A stretch of DNA of 64,000 nt from Vairimorpha necatrix (taxonomy: Eukaryota), in contig CP142729.1 of assembly GCA_036630325.1 (NCBI GenBank), forward strand, positions 558,001-622,000, given 5' to 3'. Numbering within the stretch: position 1 is the first letter of the stretch; each line of letters begins with the position of its first letter. Below are positions 1,887 through 52,669 of this stretch, piece after piece. The translations under genes and the position numbers were made by a program. The notes below the pieces were generated by a model. It made no database searches, was not told where the DNA came from, and was given only the letters and a program-made list of their open reading frames with translations.

Positions 1887-3108
1887 ATTATGGGTTACTA
1901 ATCATATTATTAAAAACTTGCTTTTTAGTAAATTTCAGAAAAAAAATGTTTTTTACAAATCAGTAAGTTCAAAATTAGTTCTACAGCATATTATAACTAT
2001 TTAAGAATTGTATAATGTATTTATTTGCTTTAGTACTCTCAATTAATTGTAACAAATATCAGGTAGCGAAGAAACTTTCTTATTAGTTTTTTGATAATAC
2101 TTATTGAATTTATATTAATGGCATTCTTGCATTTTAATGATTATTATATATTCTGTTTTTATAAAAAATAGATTAAGACAAAAGTAATAAAATATTATAT
2201 TTAAACATAATTTATTAGTAATGTAGTCGAACTAGAAAATTTGAAGTCTAAGATAATTGTTATTGAGTTTAATCCTTTGTGAAATGTGTTTATTGCCTAG
2301 TCTACATGTACGAAAGCATTCTTTCGTAAAAATCGTCTATGAGTTCTTTTGGCATGAGTTTAAACTGTTATCAGTAAAATTATATATTAAATGTTAATTA
2401 AAGATTTAAATGTTCAAAAATTAAATTACTGTCATGTACTAGAAACTAATTTTTTGGTTAAAGTTATGATTTGAAAAAAAGAAATTTTGATTATATAAAT
2501 TGTTAAAAATCCTGAATAAATAAATTAAAAGATATGCTCATTGAAAAGCAACTAATTAGTATTTAATCTATAATCCAAAATAGATACTGGAAAATTATTA
2601 TTTTTCATAAAATAAATCTTCCAAAGGTCACACAAAACATACTATTTTTAAAATGCGCAAATATAATAGAACTTGAGTCCTAGATATTGTAGGTTTATTA
2701 ATAATCTTACTATAAAAAATAGGTTTTGTGAGCAAATACATGAAAAATCACACAAATAATGTCAGAAAAAAAAAGTACCGTGATTCATTTTTTCTTGAAA
2801 TTAATATAAAAAAGTATTATTGGAGAAATTCATCTGAAAACATCTGCTCACTCTAAATATACTATTAGAAAAAATTCTAAGTTGATACATATAGATTAGA
2901 ATGATAAAAAATTGCAAATAAATTAATTTCTTAAATGTCGCAAAAAGCAAACGAGAACAATATATGTTATAAAATTAACTTTGTTACAATATAATTGTGA
3001 GACTAATCATCTCAACTCACATTATAAGCAGACTGAGAACAATATAGATCAAACTTTTAAAACTGCCCAGATTTAAAGTCAATCTGTACATCTCTATGTA
3101 AATATGTC

Positions 3109-3181
3109 GGTGCCCTTAGCCAAGTGGTAGAAGGCAATGCTTACATTGAGCAATGGCTGGGTTCGATTCCCAGTGGCACCA
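3109..3181 (+). ncRNA. tRNA-like head (pseudo-tRNA) of the SINE-like element
   Basis: Acceptor GGTGCC/GGCACC, T-arm CTGGG-TTCGATT-CCCAG and D-arm GCC/GGC are present. The anticodon loop TACATTG lacks U33 and purine 37, so it is not a canonical tRNA. Confidence 0.7.
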
Positions 3182-3232
3182 AAATTGTTTCTACTTTCAA
3201 TGATGCAGTTGGAACAACTCAGATGATGAAAA

Positions 3233-3311
3233 TATCCACGATAATCATTAAGTTGATTCAATGAAACTTGTGTGTGCCCAGCCACAGGGGGATTATCGTC
3301 TAGTGTAGAAA
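3233..3311. repeat. 79-bp direct repeat, copy 1 (abuts left MULE TIR)
   Basis: Identical to 4973-5051 except G3287/A5027. Confidence 0.95.
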
Positions 3312-3385
3312 GGCAAGCCGATTTTTCGGCCTTAGGCCGAAAAATTGGTCTTTCGGCCTAAAAAAAATTATTTTAAAATACCCCA

Positions 3386-4786
3386 ATGGAAAATTTATCC
3401 CACGAAGAACTGTGTGAAGTTCGTTCCAAAAGAGGAGGAAGAAAGATATTATATGCAGGACATGCGTATAATTTCAGATATAACGGAAAAGAAAAAATAA
3501 TATGGTGATGTAGATCAGAAAACTGCACTTCAAAACTTCATACAAATTTAGATTGTAGTTTTTTAAGCGTTACCCCCCCCCCACAACCACGAGCCAGACT
3601 TCGACAAAAATAAATTCGAATATTCCTACGGTCAAATATTAAAACGGGCAGAGAAAAATGCCGAGGCGTCAAGAATTATAATTTTTGACGCGTTGAAAGA
3701 ATATTCTAATGAAGCTTTAAAAAAAACACCTGATATCTTTAGTATTAGGGATAGAATTAAGAGAATGCGAAACGGGAGGCATAGTTACTCAACTCCCGAT
3801 AAAACTTATATCCCAAATTCAATTAAATATTTGCCTACAGGCGAATTATTTGTGCAATTTGATTCTGGGATAGAAGATAAGGAAAGAGTAGTGAATCTTT
3901 GCACGCTAGAAAATTTAATTCACCTTGAGAATACTAAAACTATTTTAATGGATGGTACTTTCAAGTTTGCTCCATCTAATTTCAAGCAACTCTATACTCT
4001 AGTCGCGTATATCAATACTAAGTACATTCCTTTGGTATTTATACTAATGTTAAAAAAAAATGAGGCATCATATAAGAAAATATGTGATTTTATAGTGGAA
4101 AAAGCACCAAATTTTAACCCTAAATGTTTTAATTTAGATTTCGAATTAGCACCAAGAAAAGCTTTCAAAACAGCTTTTCCTGCCGCAGTTTTCTATGGGT
4201 GCAATTTTCATTTTTCCCAGATTATTTATAGGAAAGTGCAAGAGTTGAAAATGAGCACGTTGTATCAAAATGATATCGAATTTAAAATGAATATAAAAAG
4301 GATTTTAGCGTTAAGTTTTGTTAAACCTATTGAGGTTCTAAATTTTTTTTGTCTGATTAAGAAAAGCTTATGTCAAGGAGTGATAGAAAGAGATATGAAA
4401 CAATTTTAAAATTTGTATTTAAAAATTATATTGACATTGACGCAGAAGAGATTTTATTTTGGAATGTTTATAAACGAGTATTAAATAAGTTACCAAGAAC
4501 TACGAATAGTTTAGAAGGATTTCATATATCGCTTGATAATCTTTTTACTGTAGCAAATCCAGATTTGGGTGTTTTTGGAGAAAGGTTACATGAGGAGCAT
4601 TTGAAAAGCAGGCAAAAAATTCTACGCGCTTATTACAAGTCCTTTAAAGTAAATGAAAAGTGTAAAAAATATATACAAGAAAAATATATATATGATATTG
4701 TATCCAATTTTGAAACCATAGACGCGCTTGATTATTTATTTCAAATTTCATCTACTCTTGAATACCCTTTTACATTATTAAATTAA
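3386..4786 (+). pseudogene. FLYWCH + MULE DDE transposase, disrupted
   Basis: ATG 3386 follows CCCC. N-terminal FLYWCH-like segment (SKRGGRKILYAGHAY...W*C...C...HNH) has a stop and a frameshift at a poly-C run. Motifs MDGTF, LDFE, GCNFH and TTNSLEGFH. Second frameshift near 4370. Confidence 0.85.
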
Positions 4787-4810
4787 TATTAGTTATTTGG
4801 TTTAGTTTTA

Positions 4811-4924
4811 TTGTTTTTTTATATTATTTATTTTTTTTTTATTATTTTTTATTTATTTTTTATTTATTTTTTTTATTTATTTTTTTTATTTATTTTTTAT
4901 TTATTTTTTTTATTTATTTTTTTT
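4811..4924. repeat. T-rich microsatellite (TTTATTTATTTTTT)n inside the MULE 3' region
   Basis: Visible ~12-bp periodic T/A repeat. Confidence 0.85.
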
Positions 4925-4972
4925 AGGCCGAAAGATCGATTTTTCGGCCTAAGGCCGAAAAATCGGTCAGCC

Positions 4973-5051
4973 TATCCACGATAATCATTAAGTTGATTCA
5001 ATGAAACTTGTGTGTGCCCAGCCACAAGGGGATTATCGTCTAGTGTAGAAA
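4973..5051. repeat. 79-bp direct repeat, copy 2 (abuts right MULE TIR)
   Basis: Identical to 3233-3311 except one base. Confidence 0.95.
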
Positions 5052-8000
5052 TGCAACTCAAAGCCAAAAACAGTATCGACCTTTGGTGACTTAATGATAC
5101 ATGAAAGTATTTAATGGGTACGACCTAGTTGGAGCTTATGTCTGGTGCACTCTAGGGTTAAGATCCTAGAGCTAACTAAGAGACTAGACGAAGTAGGGCA
5201 ATAGAAGGTCCAGTGGGCCCTATCCTACAAGATTCTTACCTGCTGGCCGAAACCAGTGGGAGACTGGTTGTCAATGCAGTCCAATAAAAATGCCAGGCTT
5301 GTGATGTGGTCGTGTAAGGAGCCGTGTGTGCAACACAGATGATTGTAGGGACCTTTGAGTCAGTAAGATGATGTATCTCATCGGATTATAGATAACCATG
5401 CCCGTTAAGTATATCCGCTGTGAGGTCACTCTGGACGCGATTTGAAGTATAAATGGAAAGTGTTCTCCTTGAGCCAAAGTCCAATGGATACGGCGGAGCT
5501 TGCTGCACCGGCAAGTTGTATGGATAGAGTTTTAGTGAGTAAGAATCTCACAGTACCAGTTGGATGAGGATCACACCCCAATCCCTCTGGTCTATGTAAG
5601 GTTTCTCCCTACCTCTTACTTGCAAAAAAAAAAAGTAAAAATGTCGTTTTTGTGCTGTTGTTTTCAAATCGTCTCTTAAAATTTAGATTATACTTCAATT
5701 TCATTTGGAGTCCGTATCACACTTCCTGTACATTTTTGCGCATTATATTTGTTGCCTATGCATTTTGGATAATGACAATACCAAATTAGTTGTTTTTAAT
5801 TATTTATATGGCGAATATACAAAATTCGTGACTCATCTACTATATCAATAGAATTACATGAAATGAAGGTGTTCATTTAGGTATTATTTAATTTATATGC
5901 TAGTTGAGCAGCTTAAAATAGTGCGGAAGATAACTTTTTGTTTTAAACCAATTTTTATCAAATTTCACTGAGTATGCTTTTCATAGCCAAAAAATACAAT
6001 TATAAAATGCGTGCGAAGTAAACAATGCAATTGAAACTTTAGAATAAAAATCAATAGTTCAATGTATACAATATGTCTTGTATTATGATAGTCTAATATT
6101 AATGTTTATATTTTGTAAGGCGTTATAAAAATTCGATATAGGTTTGCACATACTACAAAAAGATTAAGAACCAGTGGAAATAATTATACAAAAAATGCAT
6201 GTAATATGTGATCACAAATAAAATCATCAACACAAGGTCTTTATCTTTTAACACCAATAATTTTTTATATAAAGTCGTATATGATGATTTAAGTTGTCGC
6301 CTAAACAGAGCTATTCGTAGATCTTTTACTTGGCATATACCGAATCTAAAAAAGCGTTCTGTTTTTTTTTTTCAGATGCATTTTTGTCGGACTACTTCAT
6401 TTTACCTCAATAAATTTTATTTTTGCAAAATTTTCATATAAATACATATATCTAAGCATTATTAGGTTCTAGCATAATATATAAGTTGTATGTGTTTATA
6501 CCTAATTCCAAAAATGAGAAAAAATTACGCACGTGATAATTTTTAGTTTTGCTTTATATTCATAATTGCCCAATACTTAAGACACATATCATATGAGCTC
6601 CTAATGACGATTGGGGGGTTTTATCATGCTAAATATTGCGAAGTTTCTCCAAATTGCTATACTTATCCTTAGCGGATTTACATATGTAGAATAAGTTATG
6701 AATTGTAAAATGAACTTTTCTTTATGTTTTTTTAAATATATAATGTTTACAATAAAATATCTTGTTTTTTATAAGCAAACTGAGAGATGAATAATCATAA
6801 ATCTATACAAAAAATATAAATATTTTCCGTTTTAACTTACCTTAAAAAAACAATACATAGATCAGAACGATTTATCTCCATTAAATCACATCAAGTAATC
6901 GTTAGATATACTTTACTCCACAATGATTAATTTTCCGGCGAAATATCAATGTATATCATGATAAAATTGGATTATAAATGAATCATAAAAGATTTTATAG
7001 GGCGCGCAAACAAAATATTTGTGTAGAACCTTAGACATATTGAAAAAATATTATTTAAAAAGTTTATGAATAGGCGTTTCATAGCTTCAACATCGAATTA
7101 GTAAAAACAACAATTAAGCTCGAATATACAAATCAAAATCGCTAAAAAAAAATTGTGAATATTACAATTTATGAATTTTAAGGAGCATATTTTTTAAAAA
7201 TTGTTCTTTTAGTTAATTTTATAATTTTTGCATGATGATTTTTTGTTAAATAACACTCCTCCGCCAAAAATATCACGGACAAACTATAGATTAACCGGGT
7301 TGTTATTCCTAGAACTAGTAAGCCTTTAAACCCGTCTGGTTCATTGGACAAATGTTGCAAGATGGTATGAATATTGTGAATTCCAACGAAGTTCTGAATT
7401 TCCCCACATATAAAACTCGGAAATTCGTTGTTCCAATGTTATAATATATGAGATTAATGGGATTATATATTAGTTTAAAAAATTTTATCCATATAAATAC
7501 AGACTTAATCTTTTCATAATAAAAGAACATTTATTACAACAGAATTCATTCTGTTAAGATTGTAAAATTACGAATCAGACAACACAAAAAAAGTAAAACG
7601 CGTAAAAAACAATTGTTGACATATTAATTTTTTCATTATGACTATATCTATAATTATTAGCTTTTTTTATTATGTAATAGAAGACACTATCATTAGATAT
7701 AAAGACATTGGGCCATACCGTTCCGACTAATATTCTTTTTTATGTGGTAGTTAGTCTTACCATTATTCCTAGTCGCCCAACTTATTAAAAGTATATCTTT
7801 CAGGTCGTTTAAAGATGTTTTTGATAAAAATAATTTTTTGTCATTAAACATTGTTTACTGATTATAATTTGAAGTATTATTCAAGATACTTACGCTAAAA
7901 TAAATCTCTTAAGTCTTGTGATTTTGAATTTAAGTAGTGCTATTTTTTTCTTATATTAACATATTCAGTTAATATAATTAGTAATAAATTGATATATTAC

Positions 8001-10440: not shown

Positions 10441-10512
10441 GGGGAATTAGCTCAGTGGTAGAGCGTTTGCTTAGCAAGTAAGAGGTCATGGGTTCGATCC
10501 CCATATTCTCCA
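10441..10512 (+). tRNA. tRNA-Ala(AGC)
   Basis: Full cloverleaf GGGGAAT...ATTCTCC-A, anticodon loop TTAGCAA, GGTTCGATCC. Confidence 0.95.
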
Positions 10513-10606
10513 GATATTTTATTCAAAATTGACATAGATGTTTATATAACTAATATTATTATATGGTAAATAAAGGTAAAACGGGACAAGAAAACATTTT
10601 ATTACT

Positions 10607-10999
10607 TTATAAATGTTTATTATCTTCATATCTCTTATTTAATATCTTATATGTCGTCTCTATACACCCACAGAAATCTACTTTATTATCCATCTCTTTA
10701 TACATTTTTACATCTTCTTTTAATCTTTCTATATCATTTCTAAGCTGAGTCTCTACATATCCAAAATCTACTTTACTGGGAATATTAGTCAAGATATTGA
10801 AATTATTATTCAACTTGTTCAAATTTCTCTCTAAAGAAGAAGTCTGGAGATTGACAATCTGAGTGTAAAGATCAGTGAATGAAGGAATAGGAAGTTTGTC
10901 TGAAGAAATGTAGACTTGATTGGATAATCTGTGGATATTGATAAGTTTCTGTTTGATATTTTGTGGGAGATCAACGAATCTTGTGTCTTTCTTGAGCAT
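10607..10999 (-). CDS. Hypothetical coiled-coil protein, possibly a reduced Nup49/Nup58-like nucleoporin
   Basis: CCC directly before the ATG. N-terminal TRFVDLPQNIKQKLINI resembles the start of the Nup49/Nup58 coiled coil (recalled, not searched). Confidence 0.45.
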   Translation of the reverse strand: MLKKDTRFVDLPQNIKQKLINIHRLSNQVYISSDKLPIPSFTDLYTQIVNLQTSSLERNLNKLNNNFNILTNIPSKVDFGYVETQLRNDIERLKEDVKMYKEMDNKVDFCGCIETTYKILNKRYEDNKHL

Positions 11000-11339
11000 G
11001 GGCTTAAAAAAACATCTGAGATTTAATGTCTAAAAATGTATTTTAAAACGCAAAAAAATATTGCGCTTTGACTTACATTTACTTTACATGCGAGTTAAAT
11101 CACTTTTATACTTAAACTATACGGTTAATATTTATTATTTACATGCGCTTAACTTTACTGTAAGAATAAAATTGTGCACAAAATAAAATTAGAAACAATA
11201 TAAACATATTTTTCACCTCTTTATAGAATATTACTAGGCACTTTATACAATGATTTATATCCATTTGGACTGTGTTTCATTTTTTTGAAACTTCGTTTTA
11301 AAATTTTTTATTTATTAACCTCTTTGTACATTTTTATAA

Positions 11340-12206
11340 ATGAAACTTATCATCTCACCACAACCACATTATTTCGCTATGCTTTTATCTCTCACTAACA
11401 TTTTATTCTTCACAAAAAAGATTTCTAAAAATATAACTACAAATTCCTATATAAACCAAGACAAATCAACTAGGCACAAAAAGACACTTTTAATGTTTAC
11501 TCTATATCTTACTCTTTTATTCTTCATCTTATACTCATTCTCATCTTCATTTATAGGCTACAGAAAAAACCAAATTATTTACAGATCTATCCAGTCTAAT
11601 GATTATTACGATATACTCAAATACATAGAAATAATCTATGAGACACTACTGAAATCTTCATTATTTCTTACACTAGTCATTTTTATACCTCTAGTATTTA
11701 CAAAAAATAATATTGATTTAATAATTAATTTTATATTGATTTATAGTGGTATAAGAATAATATCTTATCCACTACTAATACACATATTAAGAGAATATTC
11801 ATATTTCTCTACGTTTATACTCGAGATATTTCAAATATCTGAGACATTATTGCTTATATTCGTATTTGTAAAAATTTTAAACAATAAAAAAATTGTAGAA
11901 GATTGTAATTTGATAGAAACTTACGAACACGAATACATTTATCTGAAGATTATAAAGAAATGTAAATTTATAATAGGAGAACTGGGACTAGAACTAGTCT
12001 ATAGAATAGTATTAGTATATTTTATGATTAATAATATAGAAAATATAAATAAGTGGATGAATATCATTTATATAATGAAGATTGGATACATACAAATGAT
12101 GATTATGAGTGTAGAGACAGTGATATTTTGTAAAGAACAGGAGACATTTGATAATTTGATGAATTTTACAGAAGTACATAATGAATTAAAAAAGAGTAAA
12201 GTTTGA
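11340..12206 (+). CDS. Multi-pass membrane protein, unknown function
   Basis: 288-aa ORF with ~6-7 hydrophobic segments. Confidence 0.7.
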   Translation: MKLIISPQPHYFAMLLSLTNILFFTKKISKNITTNSYINQDKSTRHKKTLLMFTLYLTLLFFILYSFSSSFIGYRKNQIIYRSIQSNDYYDILKYIEIIYETLLKSSLFLTLVIFIPLVFTKNNIDLIINFILIYSGIRIISYPLLIHILREYSYFSTFILEIFQISETLLLIFVFVKILNNKKIVEDCNLIETYEHEYIYLKIIKKCKFIIGELGLELVYRIVLVYFMINNIENINKWMNIIYIMKIGYIQMMIMSVETVIFCKEQETFDNLMNFTEVHNELKKSKV

Positions 12207-12214
12207 AAAAAGCA

Positions 12215-12288
12215 TGCTCCGACTGGGATTCGAACCCAGGGCCTTCGCGTTATTAGCACGACGCTCTAACCGACTGAGCTACCAGAGC
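12215..12288 (-). tRNA. tRNA-Ile(AAT)
   Basis: Reverse complement GCTCTGGTAGCTCAGTCGGTTAGAGCG-TCGTG-CTAATAA-CGCGA...GGTTCGAATCCCAGTCGGAGCA. Confidence 0.95.
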
Positions 12289-12494
12289 TTATAGATGTGA
12301 TTTATTATATTAATTTAAATGTAATATAATTTGTAAGATATATTAAATGTGTACGGATAAAACTTAAATTTAAATAATTAAATGTGTAACAATTTGATCT
12401 TTATTGATTTAGACAGTATAGAATTTTGATGAAAACTTTATTGTAAAAAAATTAAATTAACAAATCTGATTTATAAAATTTCAAAACCTGTAGT

Positions 12495-12672
12495 AAAAAT
12501 TTGCATCTATATTTTATAATTTAAAATTTGCATCTATATTTTTATAATTTAAAATTTGCATCTATTTTTTATAATTTAAAATTTGCATCTATATTTTATA
12601 ATTTGAAATTTGCATCTATTTTTTATAATTAGAATTTGCATCTATATTTTTATATTTTTAAAATTTGCATCT
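12495..12672. repeat. ~27-bp minisatellite x7 (AAAATTTGCATCTATATTTTATAATTT)
   Basis: Seven ATTTGCATCT cores at ~27-bp spacing. A second degenerate array (ATAAAAATCTAGAGTAAAAATTTTT) follows to ~12840. Confidence 0.9.
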
Positions 12673-12855
12673 TTATATCTATCATTAATAAATCTAGAGT
12701 AAAAATTTTTATAATAAAAATCTATAGTAAATTTTTATAATAAAAATCTAGAGTAAAAATTTTTATAATTGAAAAACCTAAAGTAAAAATTTTATTTAAT
12801 ATGTAAAACCTATAGTAAATATTTTATTTAATATGTAAATATTTCTATTTATGTT

Positions 12856-13836
12856 CTATAATATCTTTGTCGTCTCTATTTCTTTTATAAATTCATCTAT
12901 ACTCATTTTATCTTTGTGCACTGCTTCATTCAAAAACCTCTTCCACATTTTACTCCCATTTTTCCCATGTAAAACATTCTGTAAAGGACTTAACATCCTA
13001 AATGTTATTTTTTCTCCACCATCAAATGTCTCCAAATATCTTTTTATAATCTCATACACATTCATATTATTATTTCCATATATAATATCTTCTATATTTT
13101 TAAATACTAAAATATTCTTTATAGCTTCTCTACCTATCATTATTCCATCTACCATATTTTCATATGGTAGATTTTTTATCCCACCATTTAGTATAAACTT
13201 AATATGTAATAACTCTTGTTTAATTCTATAAACGTATTCGTAATTCAAAGATGGTATATTTCTATTCTGTTTTGGGCTTAACCCACCAAGCCAACATTTC
13301 CTAGCATGTACATAAAATTTTTTAACAGGGCTATTTTGTACTAAAAATTTTACAAAATTGCTAAAAAATTCGTATGTGTCTAAATCGTCCACACCTACAC
13401 GGATTTTAAGGGATAAGACGATATTATGATCAGAATAGACAGTGTTTACTATTTTAGTGACTAGTTCTTTATCTTTCATTAGTACTGCCCCAAAGCAGCC
13501 TTTTTGTACTCTTGAGCTTGGGCAGCCCAAGTTCAAGTTAAAATGTTTACAACCATGTTGTTTTAGAATAGAAATTGCACTAGATATTTCTGTAGGATCA
13601 GATCCCCCTATTTGTACTACAGTGAGATCGTCTATGTCTCCGAGTCTTTGTAATAATTTAGTAGTAGATATATTAATAACGGTATTAGAGACGATCATCT
13701 CAGTGAAGAGGAGAGTGTGTTTTGAAGATATTCTGACGAATTTTCTGAAATTTGCTGTGGTGACTTCTAACATTGGAGCGAGAGATATTTCTAAATTTCT
13801 GTAGTCTTGAGATTTGAAGTTTTTTTCATTAACCAT
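12856..13836 (-). CDS. dusA: tRNA-dihydrouridine synthase, DusA-type
   Basis: LAPM, TEM, QIGGSDP, NLNLGCPSSRVQKGCFGAVLM, KIRVGVDD, HARKCWLGGLSPKQNRNIP, NGGI, GIMIGR. Confidence 0.9.
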   Translation of the reverse strand: MVNEKNFKSQDYRNLEISLAPMLEVTTANFRKFVRISSKHTLLFTEMIVSNTVINISTTKLLQRLGDIDDLTVVQIGGSDPTEISSAISILKQHGCKHFNLNLGCPSSRVQKGCFGAVLMKDKELVTKIVNTVYSDHNIVLSLKIRVGVDDLDTYEFFSNFVKFLVQNSPVKKFYVHARKCWLGGLSPKQNRNIPSLNYEYVYRIKQELLHIKFILNGGIKNLPYENMVDGIMIGREAIKNILVFKNIEDIIYGNNNMNVYEIIKRYLETFDGGEKITFRMLSPLQNVLHGKNGSKMWKRFLNEAVHKDKMSIDEFIKEIETTKIL

Positions 13837-14165
13837 AAGAAAAGGGGCGGGAATGTATGGGATCTATGTATATGTAATAGTATATACGTTATGGAATTTG
13901 ACTCTTCATTCGGTTATTATTTAAGATGCTCTAAATGTTCTTGAACTCTTGCATTCAACTTGGAGTTACATGATATAGTTATCATTGATACAATGTTTTT
14001 AAGTTCTAGATTTAAATCCAAAGAGATAAGTCTTTTTGGCTTAATAGAAGGACAATGATGTCAAGATAGAGGAAGAGTGTACGGCTCTTTATGTTTTCGA
14101 ATTATATAAACTTTTTTTAATACATTGTAAAATACAGTATTGTATACTTTTACAAATAAAAAATT

Positions 14166-14237
14166 TGACCTCGCCAGGATTCGAACCCAGAACCTTCGGG
14201 TCTGGAATCCGACGCGCTACCATTGCGCCACAAGGTC
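14166..14237 (-). tRNA. tRNA-Trp(CCA)
   Basis: Reverse complement GACCTTGTGGCGCAATGGTAGCGCG-TCGGA-TTCCAGA-CCCGA...GGTTCGAATCC...GAGGTCA. Confidence 0.95.
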
Positions 14238-14314
14238 TTGTAAATCGAGACACTGTTTAAATTTGTTCCCATTTTACCCGCCTTTTTAATAAAAAGATAT
14301 TTTCTTAAACAAGG

Positions 14315-14578
14315 ATGTACAAAAGTAAGAAGTCTTGGTGTACAAAGAAATATTTAAAAAAGGTAAAGTCTACTGAAATATTAATAAAGAGGAAATCTTT
14401 AGACACTAAGAAAATCAAGTCTATTAAGGAATGTATTCCTAAAGTAGTGTCTCCTAAGAGGATAGGCACACCTAAAAGGATAGTCCAGTTGATGTCTCCT
14501 AATGGGTATGTAGAGATAAAAGGGAGTAAAGAGAAGAATAATTATGGATGTAGTAGAAGAATAGACTTTTTAAATTAG
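14315..14578 (+). CDS. Small basic hypothetical protein
   Basis: 87-aa Lys-rich ORF with SPKR/TPKR/SP motifs; AATAAA follows the stop. Confidence 0.55.
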   Translation: MYKSKKSWCTKKYLKKVKSTEILIKRKSLDTKKIKSIKECIPKVVSPKRIGTPKRIVQLMSPNGYVEIKGSKEKNNYGCSRRIDFLN

Positions 14579-14738
14579 TAAATAAAATGAATTATTGTTT
14601 TATAAATATGTTTTATTATATATATAAATATTATTGCATAAATATGTTTTATTATATTTATATATATGTTTTATTATATTTATATATATAAATATTATTG
14701 TTTATATTTAAAAATATTCTTGTTGTTTTAATTTACCC

Positions 14739-16067
14739 ATGAAATCTAATATTAATTTCTCGGATACTCCAAGTCTAAATCATTTTGATAACTCAAAAAT
14801 CATCCATCTTTTAAGAAAAAAATACCACAAAAAAAGATCAAATTTCCAATGTTCTTTATGTCCATCAAAAGACTCTTTACTAGTCTGTTTACACTGTAAA
14901 ATGATCTTCTGTCCTCAAGACAAGTGTAAACATCTCAATTTTTTCTTAAATTTAGACTCCATTTTCACTTCTTATAAATCTAATACAACAAAACATGTTA
15001 TAATTCATAAGATGTTTACAAATATCCCTTTTAAATTACGAGGTCTTCCTAATCATGGAAATACTTGTTACATCAACTCACTTCTTCAAGTATTCGTCAA
15101 TTTACAAGATTTTACTCGTCTACTTTTGTCTACAAATAAGTGTCATAATGAAATATGCCTGTTTTGTCGTACTAGAGACATGTTTACAGGGTATTTGACT
15201 AATAATAAAAACACACTTTTGGAATTAATAAAAACTATAATGAAGAGTAATGTGGAGTTTAGTAATAAAGATCAACAAGATGTGCACTCGTTTTACTTGT
15301 TTATGGTTGATATGAGTTGTGTAAAAAAAAAAATATTTAATAGTACCTTAATTAAAAACCATAAAACTAGTAATGAAAAAACGCCAGAATTTAATATTGA
15401 AGTAGCGCAAAAGACAACAACAAATGAATTTATTAATATTGAAGATACAAATGTAATTGAATATAATATTAAAGCAGCGCAAAAGACATTAAAAGTAAAA
15501 ACAAATGAAATTGAAGCAGCACAAAAGACATCAAATGTAAAAGACTTTCATAAATTATCAAATCTCTTCAAAATTAAAGGCAATTACATCCTTAAATGTC
15601 TAGAATGTAAAAACAAAAAATCAATCTCAAAAGAAATCTTTCTTTCTTTATCTCTAGACTTCTCTCAAACACTAAAAACAAGTTTACTAAACTTTTTTAC
15701 TAAAGAAATCCTCACTGATTCCTTAAATTGTCCAATTTGTCATAAAAACACGAAATTTGTAAAATTTTTTAAATTAAAAAAAACTAGTAAAATTTTAGTT
15801 TTACATTTAAAAAGATTTAAAATGATAAAACAAGTTTATTCGAAGATTGATAGTGAAATGAAAATTGATCATGAGTTGGATTTTAAGACTGGGAAGTATA
15901 AACTTAAAGGGTTTATAATTCATAAAGGGAGTTTGCATTTTGGACATTATATGACTTGTATAGTGAAAGATGGAGAGTGTTATTGCCTTGATGATGACCG
16001 AGTTACAGTAGTGAAAGGGAATGAATATTTACAGAAGGCGTATTTATTATTTTATGAGAGAATATAA
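14739..16067 (+). CDS. Ubiquitin C-terminal hydrolase (USP family) with N-terminal zinc finger, Ubp8/USP22-like
   Basis: Cys box GLPNHGNTCYINSLLQ, QQDVHSF, His box HKGSLHFGHY, LDDD, AYLLFY; N-terminal CxxC...CxxC. Confidence 0.9.
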   Translation: MKSNINFSDTPSLNHFDNSKIIHLLRKKYHKKRSNFQCSLCPSKDSLLVCLHCKMIFCPQDKCKHLNFFLNLDSIFTSYKSNTTKHVIIHKMFTNIPFKLRGLPNHGNTCYINSLLQVFVNLQDFTRLLLSTNKCHNEICLFCRTRDMFTGYLTNNKNTLLELIKTIMKSNVEFSNKDQQDVHSFYLFMVDMSCVKKKIFNSTLIKNHKTSNEKTPEFNIEVAQKTTTNEFINIEDTNVIEYNIKAAQKTLKVKTNEIEAAQKTSNVKDFHKLSNLFKIKGNYILKCLECKNKKSISKEIFLSLSLDFSQTLKTSLLNFFTKEILTDSLNCPICHKNTKFVKFFKLKKTSKILVLHLKRFKMIKQVYSKIDSEMKIDHELDFKTGKYKLKGFIIHKGSLHFGHYMTCIVKDGECYCLDDDRVTVVKGNEYLQKAYLLFYERI

Positions 16068-16376
16068 AAATTTAAATATTTATTGTATATTGGCTATAAA
16101 TAGCAATATTATTATTAAATACCCTTTATGTCTACTATTCTCAACATTTATTGTATATTAAAATTTTAAATATTTATCGTATATTAAAATTTATTAATAT
16201 TTTATAATTATAGTATATGAAGCATATTTTAAAATATATATGTAAAAACTAACCCTTAAGATTAGCTATGATTTTTGTATGTAAAAACTAGCCTTTAAGT
16301 TCAGCTATGATTTTTTATCATGTAACCGTAGCCTAGCAAAATCAAAAATAACAACTAAAATATTTAGAAAAAAGAT

Positions 16377-16448
16377 GGGCCCAACCGGGATTCGAACCCG
16401 GGACCTTCTGCACCCAAAGCAGATATCATACCACTAGACTATCGGGCC
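16377..16448 (-). tRNA. tRNA-Pro(TGG)
   Basis: Reverse complement GGCCCGATAGTCTAGTGGTATGATA-TCTGC-TTTGGGT-GCAGA...GGTTCGAATCCCGGTTGGGCCC. Confidence 0.95.
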
Positions 16449-19510: not shown

Positions 19511-19795
19511 ATGGTAAGTAAAAATTTACATAATTTTCAGAATTTTGATTTAGCTTTCCCTACAGAAGAACAAATAAAAAAGACTCACAAGACCAAGAAT
19601 TTATATGCAGTCCCTACTGGTTATTTTATGCAAGTCTTATGTGATGGATGTAAAGGAGTTACTTTATGTTATTCTCATTCTCAGAGAGACATGAACTGCA
19701 AGGGATGTGGAGAGACCATTTTGAAGAGTACAGGAGGAAAAGCGGGATTAATTGGAGAATGTGCTTTTAAGAAAGTTGATTATTCCTTTGAATAA
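19511..19795 (+). CDS. RPS27: 40S ribosomal protein S27 (eS27); exons 19511-19513 and 19541-19795
   Basis: [34 protein letters not shown]. Intron GTAAGT...TAAT...CAG directly after the ATG. Confidence 0.93.
19514..19540 (+). other. 27-nt spliceosomal intron
   Basis: GTAAGTAAAAATTTACATAATTTTCAG: 5' site GTAAGT, branch-like TAAT, 3' CAG. The post-ATG position is typical of microsporidian ribosomal-protein introns. Confidence 0.85.
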
Positions 19796-23597: not shown

Positions 23598-25905
23598 TGG
23601 GGCTAATAACAAAAAAAAATTAAAAAAACCGTTAATAATTTATTAAGAAATTTTATAAAAAAAATTAATGTTATATTAGTGTTATTCAAGTCAATGTCTT
23701 TGTTGCGTAGAATAATGGATTTTAAAAAACTTAACAGATTAGCTAAGAATAATATTTATAGATTTTTGACAATTCAAAAAACAGAAGTTATAATTAGAAA
23801 AGTTTTCTTTTAGTTTCTCGTGAGAATAATATATGCGTCTTTGCTCAATAGTTATTGAGATTGAGTATTATACGATATTACTGTTTAATATAGTCTAATA
23901 AAATATAATTTAATTTTTATAATTATTAATCATTCATTTTTTAGACTACTCAAGTCATCTTTACTTGTATATAAATGTATGTTAGAGCTTTTCTTTAAAG
24001 AAAATCTAAATATGAGATGAATAAACGATCAAATTGGATTTGTATTTAAAAAATTATTCAAGTATTTATTCATTATCTTCATTTAATTATTTATTCATAA
24101 TCTTTATTTCTGTCACAGTTATTGCATGTCTGTCTCTCGTGTCGCAATTTTCCTTTTTAGAATAGTATTGTCTGCTATAATAATAAAATATACTAAAAGC
24201 TTTTAAAGTTTATAGATTTAATATAGGCTTTAAAATGATCAAACTACCCCACCTAGTAATTCTGTAATAAATTGTTGACAAATAATCACACCCAACTCAT
24301 AAACATATTATAAACCTAAGCAATATAGATAATTCATTTGCCAATGTAAAAATCTTGTAGTAGAAAACAATCAAAATATTTTTTAAATGTTAAAGAAAAT
24401 TTTAGATAAGTACGCGTTTGGTATGACTGTAGTACAATTTTGAATAGAGGTTTATCAATCGCTTTCGCTTTATTTTTTTATATAGTATAAGATACATATT
24501 TTTTAATAACAAATAATTTAGAATTTCGAATATTTATTTATTTAATTATAAAATTTGACATTAGAGACAATTCAAATGCACGTTTTTTGAAAAGAAGTTA
24601 CTATTTGCTGTATAAACCGATCTACAAATCGTTTCATCAACATAAATTACGCACTCTTCTTAAATACTACTAGTCAAGTTAATTAAACATGGACCTCAAT
24701 CTTGTCAGAAAGTGCCTATGAAACAATTTTAAATCTTGTATCTTAGATATCTTAGATTTAATTTGTATAAATTATCAATTGCCTCGTATACATATTGTTC
24801 TTTTGTAATTTAAGATTAAGTGTCTTATATTTTAACTATTAGAATATATATGACTATAATCTATAACAACCATATCTGGGTTGTGTTTTACTTTATGATG
24901 TTTATTTTAATTGTAGTGTACATCAAAATCAAACCTATTTTTTAAATCTTACTTTTAAAACTAAAGAACTCGTCTTTTAGAAAATTTTTTATAAAAATTC
25001 TAAATGCGTCTTGATTTAACCACGTAGCATCTGGTGTAAAAATGCGAACCGTTTTACAGTAATTCGTTCATCATTGACCCATTATTTTTCTATTAATGGA
25101 ACGAGAAGTGCCGTTTCGATTTAAAATTAATTTATGTAGTGTTAAAAAATTTTGTTTGTGTTTAAACAGATATTTTACTAAATATTGTATAAATATTTGG
25201 TCATTCGTTGTGCACCGAGTTTATTGCGCATAGTATCTATTGTTAATGTAAACAACTCTTTAGTGATCATCTTAAATGTATTTTAGATTATTTAAATGTT
25301 TAATTTTCCTAGATATATAATAAAATGATATGTAATGGTATCATTGGAAAAATTGTTGAGTTTATACATGTGCATATTTTGATTCAGGTTTACAAACATG
25401 TTATTTATACCGAGAAGAATTTTAATAGATTAAAATAATTAATTAAATTTATTTGAAATTCCGCGAAGTCCGGTCAAAAATGTATTATCTTATGGTTTAA
25501 AACACAATTATATATCAATAACGAATTTGAATGTTTAAAACAAAAATCTTTTGTCTAGAATTCTTGTGTTGTGTCTTTTAGACCCTCTTAACGAACTAGA
25601 CGTTTTATTTTTTAGGTTTTATGTGCTAATCTTACACATTTTTTTAAAATCTATCTATAACGTGTAAGATTTTGATCAGTGCAATATATAAAACGCTGTA
25701 GAAATATTCAACAAAAAGTTAAGTTGTGAGATGGAAATGTTTAATTTATTCCTAGTATCATACAAATGATGTTTTCCTATAGTTATGTGGCCCGCGCCTT
25801 TAATATATCGATTGTAACTCTATTTTTGGCGACATAAATATTGATTTTACCTATTCCCTGGAAGTCAAGTTGAATAAACATGGCGGCATTCGGGCCTAAT
25901 TTAGT

Positions 25906-25932
25906 TATATATATATATATATATATATATAT
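25906..25932. repeat. (TA)n microsatellite
   Basis: About 13 TA units. Confidence 0.9.
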
Positions 25933-27179
25933 TTAAATGAGTAAAAGTCGTCTGTCACATTTTCTTTAGATGCATATGTGAGGTTGTAAACCTCTGTTGC
26001 AAAAACCATATCGCTCTATGTTCATAGTGTTTTTTCTGGACACTATACAATTTGGTATTACATAAATAAAAATTTTATTTTTTTTAGTAAATAAATATAA
26101 ACGATTAAGAAAATGTTATCAAATGCTTAAAAAAGTAAATTTTTATTCCTAACATGAGTAGAAATTGATTTTTGCACGAGAAAACCAAATTTAAAACATA
26201 GAAAATATTATTCTTTTGTAATTAAACAAGGAATATAATGAATTTCATGGCTATTTGATATGAGAAAATGTAGATCCTTTAGTTTGTGAGAGAATACAAG
26301 TATATTCAGACGAATTACATGTTATTGTATAGCAAATTGTGCATAGACAAGGAATGAGAAGTTCCACCAGAACGTAGACATAACAAGTAATACAAAATTT
26401 ATTAATGTTTTTTAATTTTAAAAAAGAGCATAAGTTATTGTATTCTTGAACTTATGACAAATAATTTTACTTTAAAAGATTATAAAATAAGAAACCATTA
26501 TAAGGTATAGATGTTTTTTGTGTAACAATTACATACACGTGATAAAATATTACGACATAAGATATAATATCATAGAGTTTATAGAAAGGATGCCTGGAAT
26601 ACAAGATCATTCGAAACTCATCCAATTATATACCTTAGTAAACTATTAAACTATGTTATGGCGTTGAATAAAAAAGACGCTAGCGGAACAAGCGTAAAAG
26701 TCCGTTTGAATAAAACATTGATAATAGGGTTTATTGCTAAATATAAAATTACTCAAATAATTCTCGATAAATACTTCTACATCATTTTTAAAAAGTGTAT
26801 AATTTGTATAAATAATCAAACTCCTTACGTTTTGCAGTAAAGTTGGCTTAATATACTGGTGTAGAATTTTTTTAAATTTCATTTCAATTTAATTATAGTC
26901 TAAGCAAATAATCATTGTTAGATCATAATAAATTACCACAAAAGCAAACTACTATCAAATTTATATAGTTAATTAGAAGTTAAATGCAGAGGGTTTAGTT
27001 CGGACTTACCGATTTTTAAGTACTGAATCCGTGTTCAGACTATAAAAGTTATAAAATGTTTTTTTTTTATAAAATATGCGCAAAGTCTAAAAATTACAGA
27101 TTTATTTGAAATAATATTTTCTGCTATAAATTTTTTTTTGCTTTTTAAAAATTTTTAGAAAATAGATTACCCGAATAGT

Positions 27180-27990
27180 ATGTCTAAAGCCTTCCAACAG
27201 AAGGTCAAGAATATTCCAAGACTCCTATAAGCCAATATTTTCACAAATAGAAAAAAATCCATTAAAAACAACAATAAAACGTGCAATTGGCTCGCAGATT
27301 ATATTTAACCTAGAAAATCTGTACATTTACAGCTTCAGGTATAAATTTAAGGCGAGGGGGCAGAAGAAAGAATTCATTTATGGCGTTGATACATATATTT
27401 TTACTCACCAAATATCGCCTTTACAAAATTATTTATTTGATGAAAAACAGTCTACAGTAAACCTTAAAAAAGTCACATGTATTAAAACAAGATACTAATT
27501 ATTGAAAAAGGAAAAAAGCGATCACTAAAAAGATAAAGGTGTTATAGAAATGGCTCAGATATTTGAAACATAATTGTTTAAAAATTTGTCAAATCCACAT
27601 CGAAAAAATATACCTAGTTAAAGTCTGCATACAGTTATGAAAATAGACGAGCGAAAATTAGAATTGAGAATCATAATATCATTTAACTGTAATAATGTTA
27701 CAGTGACTGAATTCTTAAGCAGTACATAAAAAATGAAACATCTTGTTAACTTAAGGGCATATTTCTTACCTCAAAGCAGTTGGATTGATCAACGTCAAAT
27801 ATATCAAGGTATAATTAAAATGAGTTCTGTAGAAACGAAGCATGTGAGACTACAAATATAATCAAGAAGCTTTTACACTTCTTAGATGTAATATTATATC
27901 TAGAAAGGGATTAAACAAGATACTATCTCAGATTTTTTAGAAGAATTTTAATGGCGAAGAAAATGTGCAATCTATAAAAATTTCATGGAT
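27180..27990 (+). pseudogene. Degenerate Merlin/ISXO2 (IS1595-like) transposase remnant
   Basis: Fragments HTVMKIDERKL (~27630; cf. VEIDESKF) and DFLEEF*WRRK (~27930; cf. YLDEFMWR). Many stops; ends not defined. Confidence 0.5.
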
Positions 27991-28471
27991 ATTAGAGAGT
28001 TTTGCATTGATTTTAAAAGTTTTTTTTTTTATAAACTGTTTTATCGATATTTTTGATTTTTTTATTAATTCTAAGTGTCTCCCCTCATGTGGGTACTAAT
28101 ATTATGCAGACATTTGCGCCCTAAGCAAGATAAATTAGGCTCTACCTAAATTGACTTGTTCTATTCAAATTATTTCTTAATAAAAAAGGAATTTAATAAA
28201 TAATGCCAGAATTATATTATAAAATACTATAAAGTTATTATGAATTTAGAACATTGTTTTAAACAAAATCTTATTTTAATCTTAAAAATCATGTATTAGA
28301 TCTTATTACAATACAAATATTCTAAATTTCATATTATATACTAAGTTATTCAAAATAAACTTAACCATAATTAAAATAGTATATACCATAGCTCTACATA
28401 CTTCAGTTTCTATAATTAAGCATTTCATTTTATTTTTTTATTTATTTTTTTTTCTCCCATAATCCGCATAA

Positions 28472-35620: not shown

Positions 35621-35899
35621 ATTATTCTTTACTTAATATTTAAAACAGCGTAGAATGGCTTTTATTATTTGTAATCAACTTTGTGTCTAATTAATTTAAT
35701 ATGTTAAAAATTTGTAAGCCTTAGATTATAATATTATTCTGAGATATCGCATATGAAGATATATTATAAAACTAGCTACTTTTATGTTATATTTTTACAT
35801 ATCATCATATATATAAAAGAATTTTAGTTTAAAATATTTACTCATAATCTTCCTTGATTTTGTGTGTAAGTCTGCTCGCATTAAGCAACGAAAAAAAAT

Positions 35900-37800
35900 A
35901 TAAAAAATTATTATGATATTAAAACAATGTCGACACGAAAGTCTGCTTCTTTAATTTTATATGAATTTTGAGTAAAATGATCGTTTAAAAACTTATGAGA
36001 TCTACAATTTTATTAAAATTACGTAAGAGGTTTCAATGCCTAAATTAAATAGAAGCAACAAGTCGTTTACATTTTTAAAGTTGTCGCGCTCAACTGGATC
36101 CATGATCGAAATTTTGTAGTCGATGTGACAAATTTCAAAATATATTAAGATTTTCGATGAAAAAAAATCTTTGGATTTTAAAAAACATTACAGTGTCAAC
36201 TTATTCTAATAAAAATGTACCTGCCTGATCAAACTCTGATTGATTGTACAATGTCCTAGTTTTTAATACATGGATCTTTGTTCTTAAATTTTCATCGTAT
36301 TATGAAGTTTAATCTATAAGTTTAAAGGGACCTCTTCATTGTTATTTGCCTTCTCATCTAGTGTGCTTAATCTTCACGCACTTCCTTCTTTTTTAGATAT
36401 GACACATAATTATTCGGAATTAAATATGTAAAATACTATTAATATGTATATGTTTTACTCAATAATACACATATTTAACTAATTTATCGTGTAATGGTCA
36501 GAGGTATTAGAAAAAATTTAAAAAAAAAAAAATTCTTTTCTCAAATCTAAAAAAAGAGACTTTTTTACTTAAATAATAAGTTTATACGTTTTTAGTGTTC
36601 ATTGCAAATGCTTAACTACACAGTACAGCCACTAATTTCCATAGAAGAAACTTTTATTTTATAAAGCTCTTCAAATATGTATCAGGCTCATCATTGCTTT
36701 ACATAGTAAAAATTCCAAGGCCATTTTATTAACTCTTTACGCTTATCGACTTTTGTTAAGAATTTGATGTATAATAGCGTTGCTGGTGTCAATTAATTAC
36801 AATTCCGACATCTAAAGTTGCCGAGTTAGATAATTTTGGCTTGTATGTCTAGGATAAAAAGACATTTGCATGTTTCTTTTCGTCTCCACCATGAATAGTT
36901 CTTTTAAGCATGTGAATTATTTATTTTTTTAGTATGTTCGGCTTATTTTATTGTAGTTTAATTTCTCAGTGTAACATAATGTCGACTCATATTTCAACTG
37001 ATCATTATAAATGCAATTCTAGACTGAGTTATCTTAGATCTTTCAGTGTGGCATATTTCAGATCTGACATTGTCTGTAGATGCAAGATGCTTACGTCTCA
37101 TCTGATCGTGTGCATGTATAAATTCCCTTACATGCCAGAATGATCTTCTGTCGTTGTAATTTATGGGTGTGTGTGCATTCTGTCTGTTTTAAAGCTCACA
37201 AAGATTGACTTTGTAATTGGTTATACATTTTTTTTATAGCCATGTAGCCGCCCGGTTTATACAACATTAAGATCTTCTCATTTTAAATGGCTTACATTTG
37301 TTTTATTCGCTGTAACTGCTGTAAGATAAGCTTTCATTTATCTTTCAAGCGTGATGTTGCAAATTATTTATACATTTTTCACACTGTGTAGATTTGCATA
37401 GGTGTTTATCAAAGTCCTTAATTGCATTGCATTGGTTCTTAAAAATTCTCTTTTCCATTTTTACAAATCTAGGTAGGATTATTTCATTTATATACAGTCT
37501 AATTTTATAAAAATTATTGTATTCGTTATACATATCTGTTCATCTTAAAAATTTTCCTTTTCGACTTCCTACTAAAAAGTCTCATAATGAGATTTTTACC
37601 ATTTTTTCTCTACATGTGTTTCTTCATATATTATTTTATGCGTTTTTATTAATATGTTTGTTATACTCAACTACTATTATACAATACCCGCTTTTTTGCC
37701 TCTCTAGTGTGATTTTATCTTGCTATACAAATGATTGCTGAAAAGATAATTCATTTTTGGACTAAGTTTTCAAATCATTGTCTTTTAAACCCTTGTATAT
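35900..37800 (-). mobile_element. Highly degenerate LTR-retrotransposon (gypsy-like) pol remnant
   Basis: Scattered minus-strand fragments resembling protease LIDT (~36790) and RT segments (~35930-36170). No ORF; boundaries approximate. Confidence 0.3.
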
Positions 37801-38327
37801 TTATTCTATTATATGTTTAAATTATTAAATTTCTATGTTTATGACATCATTGGATCCGTTGAATGATTAAAATTACTATTATCTTTTACATTATACAATC
37901 GAGCTTAAGGTCGAATGACTGTTTTGTTACTTAAAAAATCAATATAATTTATTATAAGATTTATTTTAAGATAGGTTAGTACAAGACATCTTTTAAGCTA
38001 ATTCAACATAATTGTATGGGAATACGTCAATTGTGAAATAATTGAGACAAGGATCAGTGTGAGTCAGTTGCGATTTTGATGAACTTATTGACTTATAAAA
38101 AATCTGGCTGGTGCACTAGGCAATTTCCACGTCAATTTCAACATTAGACGAAGTAAAACAAGAAGTAATAAATAAATTAGGCCGGAATAAAAAGTGGGTT
38201 ATGTGTCCAAAAAATCTAGGACAGCTTATTCTCGAGCTAAAGAGACGTTTATGTGTCGCAAGTGATAGAAGAGGCCCTTGTGTTAAAACGATGATTTTAT
38301 TCACAGCTAGTTCAACCATGTTCGATA

Positions 38328-39486
38328 CAATTTGCTAAATTTAGGTCGTTATAGTATCATGTCCGAATTTCTATAGTGCCATAAAAAATTTAAATTTTCT
38401 ATGCCCTTAATGGTGAGAAAAGAAAGAGCCCCAATAACTACTATATTGGAAAAAAACGTTTCGAATTAGCGAAAAACGATTCATAGCAGAAATATCGAAT
38501 ATAGTTGATTTACATCGTAAAACCGTTGCATCTTATTAAGAAAATAGCACAATCAACTTGTTGGGCTACTCCGCGTTTGGTATAAGCGAAATACAAGGGA
38601 ACACAGACAATGTTATTAAAAACATAGTTTATTGTGCAAACGATAAGGATCTACAAAAAAATTATATTGAGTTAAATACACGAACAGGTGCAAATTTGAA
38701 CATATCTTAAATAACAAAAAAAAAATCTGTATAACAAGAAAACCACTCTCTGTAATTCCCGTATACAAAAATAAAAAGTGTATCTTTGCCTCTGAAATTA
38801 GTAGGTACTTATTCGAACTTCTAGTTTTTCTTATGAAACTGTGTCTAACGCTGTACTACACGAAGTCACGTACATCCAGAGAAAAAAATTATCTAAAGCC
38901 TATAATAATGTGCCATCAAATCGTTAACAAAACATCAGCTGCATGTGCGTAATTACAATAAATGAATTATTGGCATTTGAGTTCAAACGTGGAGCGTATA
39001 ACTCTGAGAGTTTTATGAACTTTGTGGAGAATAACTTTTCTATGTTCTTTTGGAATAATCCTGGTACAGTTCTTACAATAAAGTTGCTAGTTTTCATCAT
39101 TTGAGAGAAGTTAATACTTGTATAATCTAGGCATTAATCATAAATTTCTGCCTCTTTATTCTCCACAATTAAATCCCATCGAAAAATTCTTTTAAATGCT
39201 CAGGCAAAATTTTCCACTTTTCATTATTCAGAAAGTTAATCGAACCAAGTATTTATAATTTTTTAGGTTTAAATATAGCAGTGAGTGTCCCGGGGTTTAT
39301 AAGAATATGATAGGCTGGCAAGAGCGAGAGAAGACTTTAGTTTATAAACTTCAAATCTATTTTGAAATTTCAAATTAATTTATTAACATACATTTAAACA
39401 TGGCACTAAGAAATTAAACATCGCACTAGAAATTCAGACATGGCACTAGAAATTCAAACATAAAAATATAACGATTTAGACCCCTG
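38328..39486 (+). mobile_element. Degenerate Tc1/mariner-IS630 transposon
   Basis: PLYSPQLNPIE at 39151-39183. Right end ...GACCCCTG-TA with 20-bp subterminal repeats (ACATGGCACTAGAAATTCAG x3, 39398-39461) whose reverse complement is at 38358-38382. TA at both ends. Confidence 0.75.
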
Positions 39487-40074
39487 TATTTACATTTGAG
39501 TTTCAACGTGTATCGTACAATTCTAAAAGATGGCTTCGCTTTTTTTTATTTATGTTCTTTTGAATTAGCCCAGAAATTTTCCTTTTCATAAACAATGCTA
39601 GTCCGTACACGACTCATATAGTTCCGAAATCTCATTTTTAAAATTAAATCCTCTTAAAAATTTTCGTTCTACAAATTGCGTAATTAATCTAGTCCTGTAA
39701 TGTTTTGAGTTTAGATTATAATTAAAAGTGTTCTGAATTTTTACACAAATATTAAGGTCATCAAACATAAAAAGTGCTTGTTAAATGCATCTAAATGCTT
39801 TAACAAGCTTCTTTTTTTATTGTTAATCATTTTAAGTGCTACATAAAAACATGGACCACGACACATTATCTCGAAATAATGTCCAATCTATACTATACAA
39901 GAGATTAGATATATAAATACTAAAGTAGATATATAAGGACTTAGTTCCCAATATCTAATCATCCCTCCCATTACTTATAAGTATAAATCAATGTTCCGTG
40001 TTTTTATGCTATATTTTTTTTAAGGTTAACTTTATTTTATTACTTTATTAATATTTTGTTTGTTTTTTGTTAAT

Positions 40075-52100: not shown

Positions 52101-52669
52101 AAGCAAATAAATGATCATAAAGTTAAATATGTGTTTGAATGGAAATACTCATCACCCGAACACCATAATACATTAGGATGTGTTGAGAGAGTAAACCAGA
52201 CACTTTGGATCAATATAAAAAACTTACCAACTACGGAGAACCCTCTTGGAGAAGTGCATTAGAAAAAGCAACGCTCGCCGCGAATATATCCTTTAATAGG
52301 GCTATAGGAACTTCCCCATTCATTTTTAAATATGCAAGATCTCCTGAATTTGAGATTGATAAGATTTTTGAAAGGAATCCTATAAAATTCTTAAGAACAT
52401 CTCTGACTAAGAAAAGGAATGAAAATTTTACGAAGTATAGAAAAAGTATAGAAAAGGGGACTATAACAGCTCCATCAAATTTTTCCATTGGAGATAAAGT
52501 TTTAATATACAGAGAAAGCAAAAATAATAAAATGGAAGCTAATTGGTTGCCGGGTTATGAAATAACGGATAGAATTTTACCAGACAAGTTTATGGCTAAA
52601 ATTAAAAAAAGTCTAATTAGAGTAAATAAGGCTCATATTAAACACGATCTTTCTTTTGGGGGGAGGAGA

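Follow-up and report, generated by a model that had tools for sequence, protein, structure and literature searches.

A probable tRNA-derived SINE, later split by a MULE transposon, in a 64-kb stretch of the Vairimorpha necatrix genome

Is the tRNA-headed region at positions 3098-5651 of a 64,000-nucleotide stretch of Vairimorpha necatrix DNA (contig CP142729.1 of assembly GCA_036630325.1, positions 558,001-622,000 of the forward strand; hereafter the window) a mobile element, or the retroposed copy of a functional structured RNA? An initial annotation, made from the letters alone, had described a densely structured, ~790-nt element of the type transcribed by RNA polymerase III (Pol III), and had offered both options: an unusual short interspersed nuclear element (SINE), or a functional or ribozyme-bearing RNA that had been retroposed. 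The present analysis favours the former, with a probability of roughly 0.85 that region 3109-5634 is an old member of a family of tRNA-derived SINEs, about 786 nt long once a later insertion is subtracted. In kind, it is a decayed copy of an ordinary mobile element, a long tRNA-headed SINE, later split by a DNA transposon of the Mutator-like (MULE) type, and the present copy is most likely devoid of cellular function. In-silico excision of 3312-5051 leaves 786 nt, in agreement with the length first given. The element is built up as follows.

3098-3109, plus strand: left target-site duplication GTAAATATGTCG, an 11/12 match to 5635-5646; its final G is possibly the first base of the head.
3109-3181, plus strand: pseudo-tRNA head, tRNA-Met(CAT)-like according to ARAGORN, containing the A box (3117-3127) and the B box (3160-3170).
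3182-3311, plus strand: 5' part of the SINE body, before the transposon insertion, as read from the sequence; contigs of other sequencing runs continue directly into 5066 onward.
3233-3311, no strand assigned: copy 1 of a 79-bp duplication, 98.7 % identical to 4973-5051.
3312-4972, plus strand: FLYWCH/MULE DNA transposon of 1,661 bp with a transposase pseudogene (PF10551) and inverted ends at 3312-3368 and 4916-4972.
4973-5051, no strand assigned: copy 2 of the 79-bp duplication, repeating the last 79 nt of the 5' body.
5052-5623, plus strand: 3' part of the SINE body, 45.5 % G+C, without Rfam or Pfam match.
5624-5634, plus strand: A11 tail, seen directly in the sequence; contigs of two other runs (X2 and X3, see below) diverge after 5634.
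5635-5646, plus strand: right target-site duplication GTAAAAATGTCG, an 11/12 match to 3098-3109.
5647-5651, plus strand: T5 run in the flank, a candidate Pol III stop for this copy, indistinguishable from chance.

At the 5' end, ARAGORN calls a tRNA-Met(CAT), within which the A box (TAGCCAAGTGG) and the B box (GGTTCGATTCC) are both exact matches to their consensus patterns. The Rfam tRNA model scores 26.8 bits on this head, below its gathering score of 29, as compared with 62-68 bits for the window's four genuine tRNAs. Working tRNAs carry U33 and a purine at position 37. In the predicted cloverleaf, the D stem measures 3 bp and both the acceptor and the anticodon stem contain mismatches, with an A at position 33 and a T at position 37; the head thus represents a pseudo-tRNA rather than a working tRNA, as had been annotated together with the two intact boxes. 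The element thus possesses the tRNA-related 5' head with internal A and B boxes that is characteristic of SINEs.

At the 3' end, the A11 tail is followed immediately by a direct repeat of the sequence in front of the head, the two copies agreeing in 11 of 12 bases. When 20,000 pairs of positions were drawn at random from the window, a comparable abutting repeat (at least 12 nt, at most one mismatch, ±3 nt slack) turned up by chance in 0.13 % (P ~0.0013). Both the A11 tail and the duplication, originally given as 11 bp with one mismatch, are therefore confirmed, and the element displays the A tail and the flanking duplication of a tRNA-derived SINE. The longest stop-free frame amounts to 86 codons (minus strand) and has no match among 5.8 billion predicted proteins. 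The body yields no Pfam match at E < 0.07, and no coding relics of a long interspersed nuclear element (LINE) were found in it across nine frames. The absence of any longer open reading frame (ORF) and of such a Pfam match agrees with the annotation of the element as non-coding, and without protein-coding capacity it is non-autonomous, as are tRNA-derived SINEs.

Membership in a dispersed family was assessed with contigs of four public sequencing runs (X1 to X4, X3 being a bat-gut metagenome) aligned to window positions 2900-5800 at no less than 85 % identity. Contigs with 85-100 % identity numbered 472 in X1, 228 in X2, 17 in X3 and one in X4, counts which take in the MULE part; small shares in bovine and freshwater metagenomes (X5-X8) do not enter the evidence. 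Cover sets in where the head lies (bin 3094-3190) and stops where the A tail lies (bin 5616-5712). In the left flank (bins 2900-3093) it is zero for X1, X3 and X4 and does not exceed 1.97 for X2; in the right flank (bin 5713-5800) it is zero for all four runs. Behind 5634, five contigs of X2 (agreement 0.51) and one of X3 go into mutually different AT-rich sequence, and at the opposite end a contig of X3 enters the start of the head (before 3123) from an unrelated flank. Record 18 of X3 passes from 3155-3315 to 5066-5202 and is accordingly transposon-free, with a single copy of the 79-bp segment. Constant ends with varying flanks, the mark of a dispersed multi-copy sequence, were thus found in runs X1-X3.

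Because the contigs share the same ends, differ in their flanks and include one transposon-free copy, the element is regarded as a SINE-type retroposon. These properties together correspond to what in practice defines a SINE family, and the same run data rule out that a tRNA gene merely lies beside a retroposed fragment. The SINE reading of the initial annotation is consequently supported on several sides, i.e., by the head with Pol III boxes, the A tail, the duplication, the non-coding body and the multi-copy family. Summed depth in X1 climbs from the 5131-5227 bin onward to a maximum in the 5422-5518 bin, a profile that fits 5'-truncated copies or a LINE with a common tail. X1 also contains deletion variants of the body, some of them with joints that have short sides, and shorter forms of the element may exist. 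The sources of X1 and X2 could be related microsporidia or hosts.

The copy would have formed when an A-tailed RNA served as template for the enzymes (reverse transcriptase and endonuclease) of a non-LTR (lacking long terminal repeats) element, i.e., a LINE, the target-site duplication of 11-12 bp arising through target-primed reverse transcription. tRNA-derived SINEs usually measure ~100-700 bp, and a length of 786 nt, slightly above this range, is one of several points weighing against the assignment. Only one copy is present within the window, and multiplicity rests on the other runs, which do not cover the unique flanks of the window. Exact patterns from conserved stretches gave no match in two metagenome, four viral and two prokaryote-genome contig scans. 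The window contains no LINE, its only reverse transcriptases being Ty3-type, and no LINE 3' end matching the tail of the element. Finally, the internal T4 run (5530-5533) might stop Pol III early.

Two arguments of the initial annotation concerned T runs. The T5 run behind the duplication is indeed present, but T4 or longer runs are so frequent across the window (13.8 per kb) that no significance attaches to it. Likewise, the element contains one T4 and no T5, as had been counted; depletion of T runs as a Pol III signature was nevertheless rejected, since 2.8 T4 runs are expected from the element's own composition (P = 0.20, 2,000 shuffles) and the low count is predicted by its G+C content of 44 %. 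This content, correctly noted as elevated, contrasts with 22-27 % in the flanks, 29 % in the MULE and 26-39 % in the coding genes. It fits a recent arrival or a continued renewal from constrained master copies and does not indicate the source. A decay of the window copy towards A+T relative to the family was also considered and dropped, as there is no clear bias per available site: among the differences best supported within the SINE part, 10 sites have A/T here and G/C elsewhere and five show the reverse, and the whole compared stretch (~65 % A+T) in X1 has 42 versus 25 such sites, again without clear bias.

The alternative raised at the outset, that a functional RNA of several structured domains (e.g., ribozyme-bearing) with a tRNA-like 5' module was retroposed here, draws on the G+C content far exceeding that of the surroundings and on a true excess of short inverted repeats. 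Counting perfect repeats within 200 nt, the element contains 22 inverted 7-mers versus 8.2 ± 3.9, a number equalled by none of 300 dinucleotide shuffles, as well as nine inverted 8-mers (2.1 expected) and four inverted 9-mers (0.5 expected). The z-score for 7-mers (3.7) tops all 25 equally long coding control chunks of the window (maximum 3.49), and 13 maximal perfect stems of 7-10 bp lie within 200 nt, in line with the stems originally listed. However, several of these long stems cross each other and are unable to form together, and perfect Watson-Crick repeats are strand-neutral. The folding energy does not clearly go beyond that of shuffled controls: for 5052-5624, z is -1.37 on the plus (RNA) strand (9 of 100 shuffles as good), no better than -1.59 on the complement (7 of 100), and the whole excised element reaches -1.74 (4 of 80). 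A search of the body against Rfam returned nothing at gathering thresholds and only chance-level microRNA and CRISPR rows at E ≤10, so that only the tRNA model responds, below threshold and in the head. The body thus matches no known structured RNA or ribozyme family of Rfam. At 5038 (twin position 3298), other copies carry an A, which would disrupt the C3239-G3298 pair of a 9-bp stem, and among the rows listed no compensating change occurs at 3239; the deletion variants of the body in X1 likewise speak against this alternative. With the T-run argument failing as well, a retrocopy of a structured or ribozyme-bearing RNA is very unlikely. "Densely structured" is therefore weakly supported, by the stems and their excess and not by the folding energy; the excess is read as a modest hairpin enrichment, as found in SINE and LINE tails, and provides no evidence for a multi-domain fold. 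For RNA biology the locus is accordingly of little importance, nothing pointing to a new structured RNA.

Two further explanations dispute the unity or the authenticity of the insertion. The element might be a one-off chimera, composed of a decayed tRNA gene beside a retroposed, 5'-truncated LINE 3' fragment or generated by a template switch from LINE RNA to a tRNA; this would account for the single copy in the window, for the X1 depth peak at 5422-5518 if it reflects the tail of a more abundant LINE, and for four X2 contigs that have a common, different sequence before 5394. Yet the duplication encloses head and tail jointly, the head is joined to the same body in three runs (across 3143, 19 contigs of X1 and nine of X2; in X3, records 17 and 18), and the X3 contig arriving from an unrelated flank places the 5' end of another copy at the same head base, which makes such a chimera very improbable. 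Mis-joining of host (insect) DNA into the assembly, instead of a real insertion in the parasite, would agree with the contrast in G+C between element and flanks and with the high abundance of the family in runs from other organisms, in which those flanks are missing. This hardly comes into consideration, given that the element is bounded base-for-base by duplicated AT-rich local sequence, which mis-joining would not create, and that it is located inside a 1.36-Mb contig, between a 204-codon ORF (1272-1886) and the alpha-tubulin gene, in a gene-dense, intron-less, eukaryotic stretch.

The sequence separating the two halves of the SINE is a MULE, as judged from a transposase domain and terminal inverted repeats. 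The inverted ends, about 57 nt long, are 96 % identical over 51 nt (85 % over 74 nt in a second comparison), and the largest ORF of the insert contains the PF10551 MULE domain (E 5e-10). The best full-length protein relative (P0001, 464 aa, 51 % identity) combines PF10551 with FLYWCH (PF04500); in tblastn, its residues 1-464 are covered by three frame pieces (3386-3568, 3582-4364 and 4355-4765), the first and third of which have one in-frame stop each. Since the transposase is split into three frames with in-frame stops, this copy is dead. An attempt to name the donor of the MULE by close protein relatives failed, the best relative being merely 51 % identical. The same MULE is present in X1 and X2 at 97-99 % identity and much lower depth, and its left flank differs there (record 2). 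A run of C at 3574-3584 coincides with a transposase frame shift; copies in X1 and X2 are shorter by one or four bases, so that the length of this run varies from copy to copy. A T-rich array (4771-4937) of TTTATTTATTTTTT-like units with a period of 8-14 nt lies in the 3' subterminal region of the MULE, directly inward of the right inverted repeat.

The insert resembles Mutator-like transposons with N-terminal FLYWCH in its PF10551 domain and long inverted ends. MULE duplications usually measure ~8-11 bp, typically ~9 bp; here, by contrast, the flanking direct duplication spans 79 bp, 78 of them identical (3233-3311 versus 4973-5051), and may be due to widely staggered cuts or a repair accident. 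The duplicated segment includes a 9-bp hairpin (ACGATAATC/GATTATCGT). Following retroposition of the SINE, the FLYWCH/MULE transposon would have entered at 3311/3312 and left the 79-bp duplication behind, and this nesting (SINE earlier, MULE later) gives the relative timing of two invasions.

Among described SINEs, HaSE1 of the moth Helicoverpa armigera resembles the window element, according to the portion of the report available (PMC3272025), in its tRNA-related head with A and B boxes, its non-coding body and its target-site duplications (5-18 bp in HaSE1); its 5'-truncated copies and its reliance on a LINE via a common 3' tail would have counterparts here as well. It differs from the window element in its 386-bp consensus, its tRNA-Glu-like head and its (TGA)n tail, which corresponds to that of an RTE LINE (same portion of PMC3272025), as opposed to 786 nt, a head resembling tRNA-Met(CAT) and a tail of 11 A. 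Four 12-14-mers of the element did not occur in the material supplementing a survey of lepidopteran SINEs (PMC8010984), an exact-match test and hence a weak one. Compared by published head type, length and tail for the Helicoverpa SINEs and by these four motifs for PxSE1-5, the element does not correspond to the described lepidopteran SINEs (HaSE1-3, PxSE1-5). Three motif strings of the element had no occurrence in the literature searched.

For microsporidia, the accessible part of a study on Nosema bombycis, a microsporidian of Lepidoptera (PMC3614468), lists SINEs at 0.18 % of the genome in its repeat table, with no family described there, beside Dong-R4 LINEs and MuDR, and reports host-derived transposons; its SINE row is an automatic tally, so that comparison with the window element is by description only. 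In the portions at hand of the respective articles, SINEs are said to be absent from Microsporidia sp. MB (PMC11585130) and appear merely as a RepeatMasker category in a Glugea comparison (PMC13702014), and the word is missing from the V. necatrix genome paper (PMC10759460) and from further microsporidian repeat surveys. No SINE characterised in a microsporidian came up in the literature searches, those on papers about the V. necatrix genome included. The family thus represents a new member of the tRNA-derived SINEs in a phylum for which characterised SINEs did not surface in the literature. Its definition should improve the repeat annotation of microsporidian genomes, and it would point to a LINE that is active now or was so recently.

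V. necatrix is a microsporidian parasite of moths. One may tentatively speculate that this is the first characterised SINE family of microsporidia and that it was possibly acquired horizontally, from the moth host or by exchange among insect parasites, although this appears doubtful at present. The idea is left open because the element, at 44 % G+C, has double the content of the non-coding DNA around it, because the SINE family and the MULE (97-99 %) are abundant in runs without the flanks of the locus, and because copies also occur in the bat-gut metagenome. If true, the spread of such a non-autonomous element within an intracellular parasite would imply fitting LINE machinery that is active in the same parasite; should the family be common to an insect host, it would provide a clean marker for the transfer of mobile DNA between host and parasite.

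The remainder of the window is in keeping with a microsporidian genome. Its genes are intron-less and rather short, encoding alpha-tubulin, myosin II, an SMC protein of 860 aa, Dus, UCH and a CCT subunit; further housekeeping genes encode SRP54, P0, eS27 and topoisomerase III. The alpha-tubulin and Dus proteins are each the sole member of their cluster at 90 % identity. The eS27 ORF (19511-19792) matches PDB chain 6rm3_SBB over 94 of 94 residues with 212 bits (next chain 86 bits), 6RM3 being presumably the V. necatrix ribosome. The microsporidian setting is supported by the compact, intron-less housekeeping genes together with this near-identity of eS27. The window has a G+C content of 28.5 %; for the V. 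necatrix genome, the sections available of two papers give 28.3 % G+C, ~50 % repeats, 12 contigs and an N50 of 1.28 Mb (PMC10759460, PMC12449221).

Two stretches of the otherwise gene-dense window (23600-28400 and 35650-40050) contain no ATG-initiated ORF of at least 90 codons and may represent further decayed repeats. A full-length pol ORF of the Ty3/gypsy type (60048-63812) comprises protease, reverse transcriptase, RNase H and integrase and ends in a C-terminus like that of murine leukaemia virus (MLV) integrase, while a second pol ORF (50931-52262) encodes RNase H and integrase alone. Four tRNA genes (Ala, Ile, Trp and Pro) are clustered within 6 kb (10441-16448), interspersed with protein genes.

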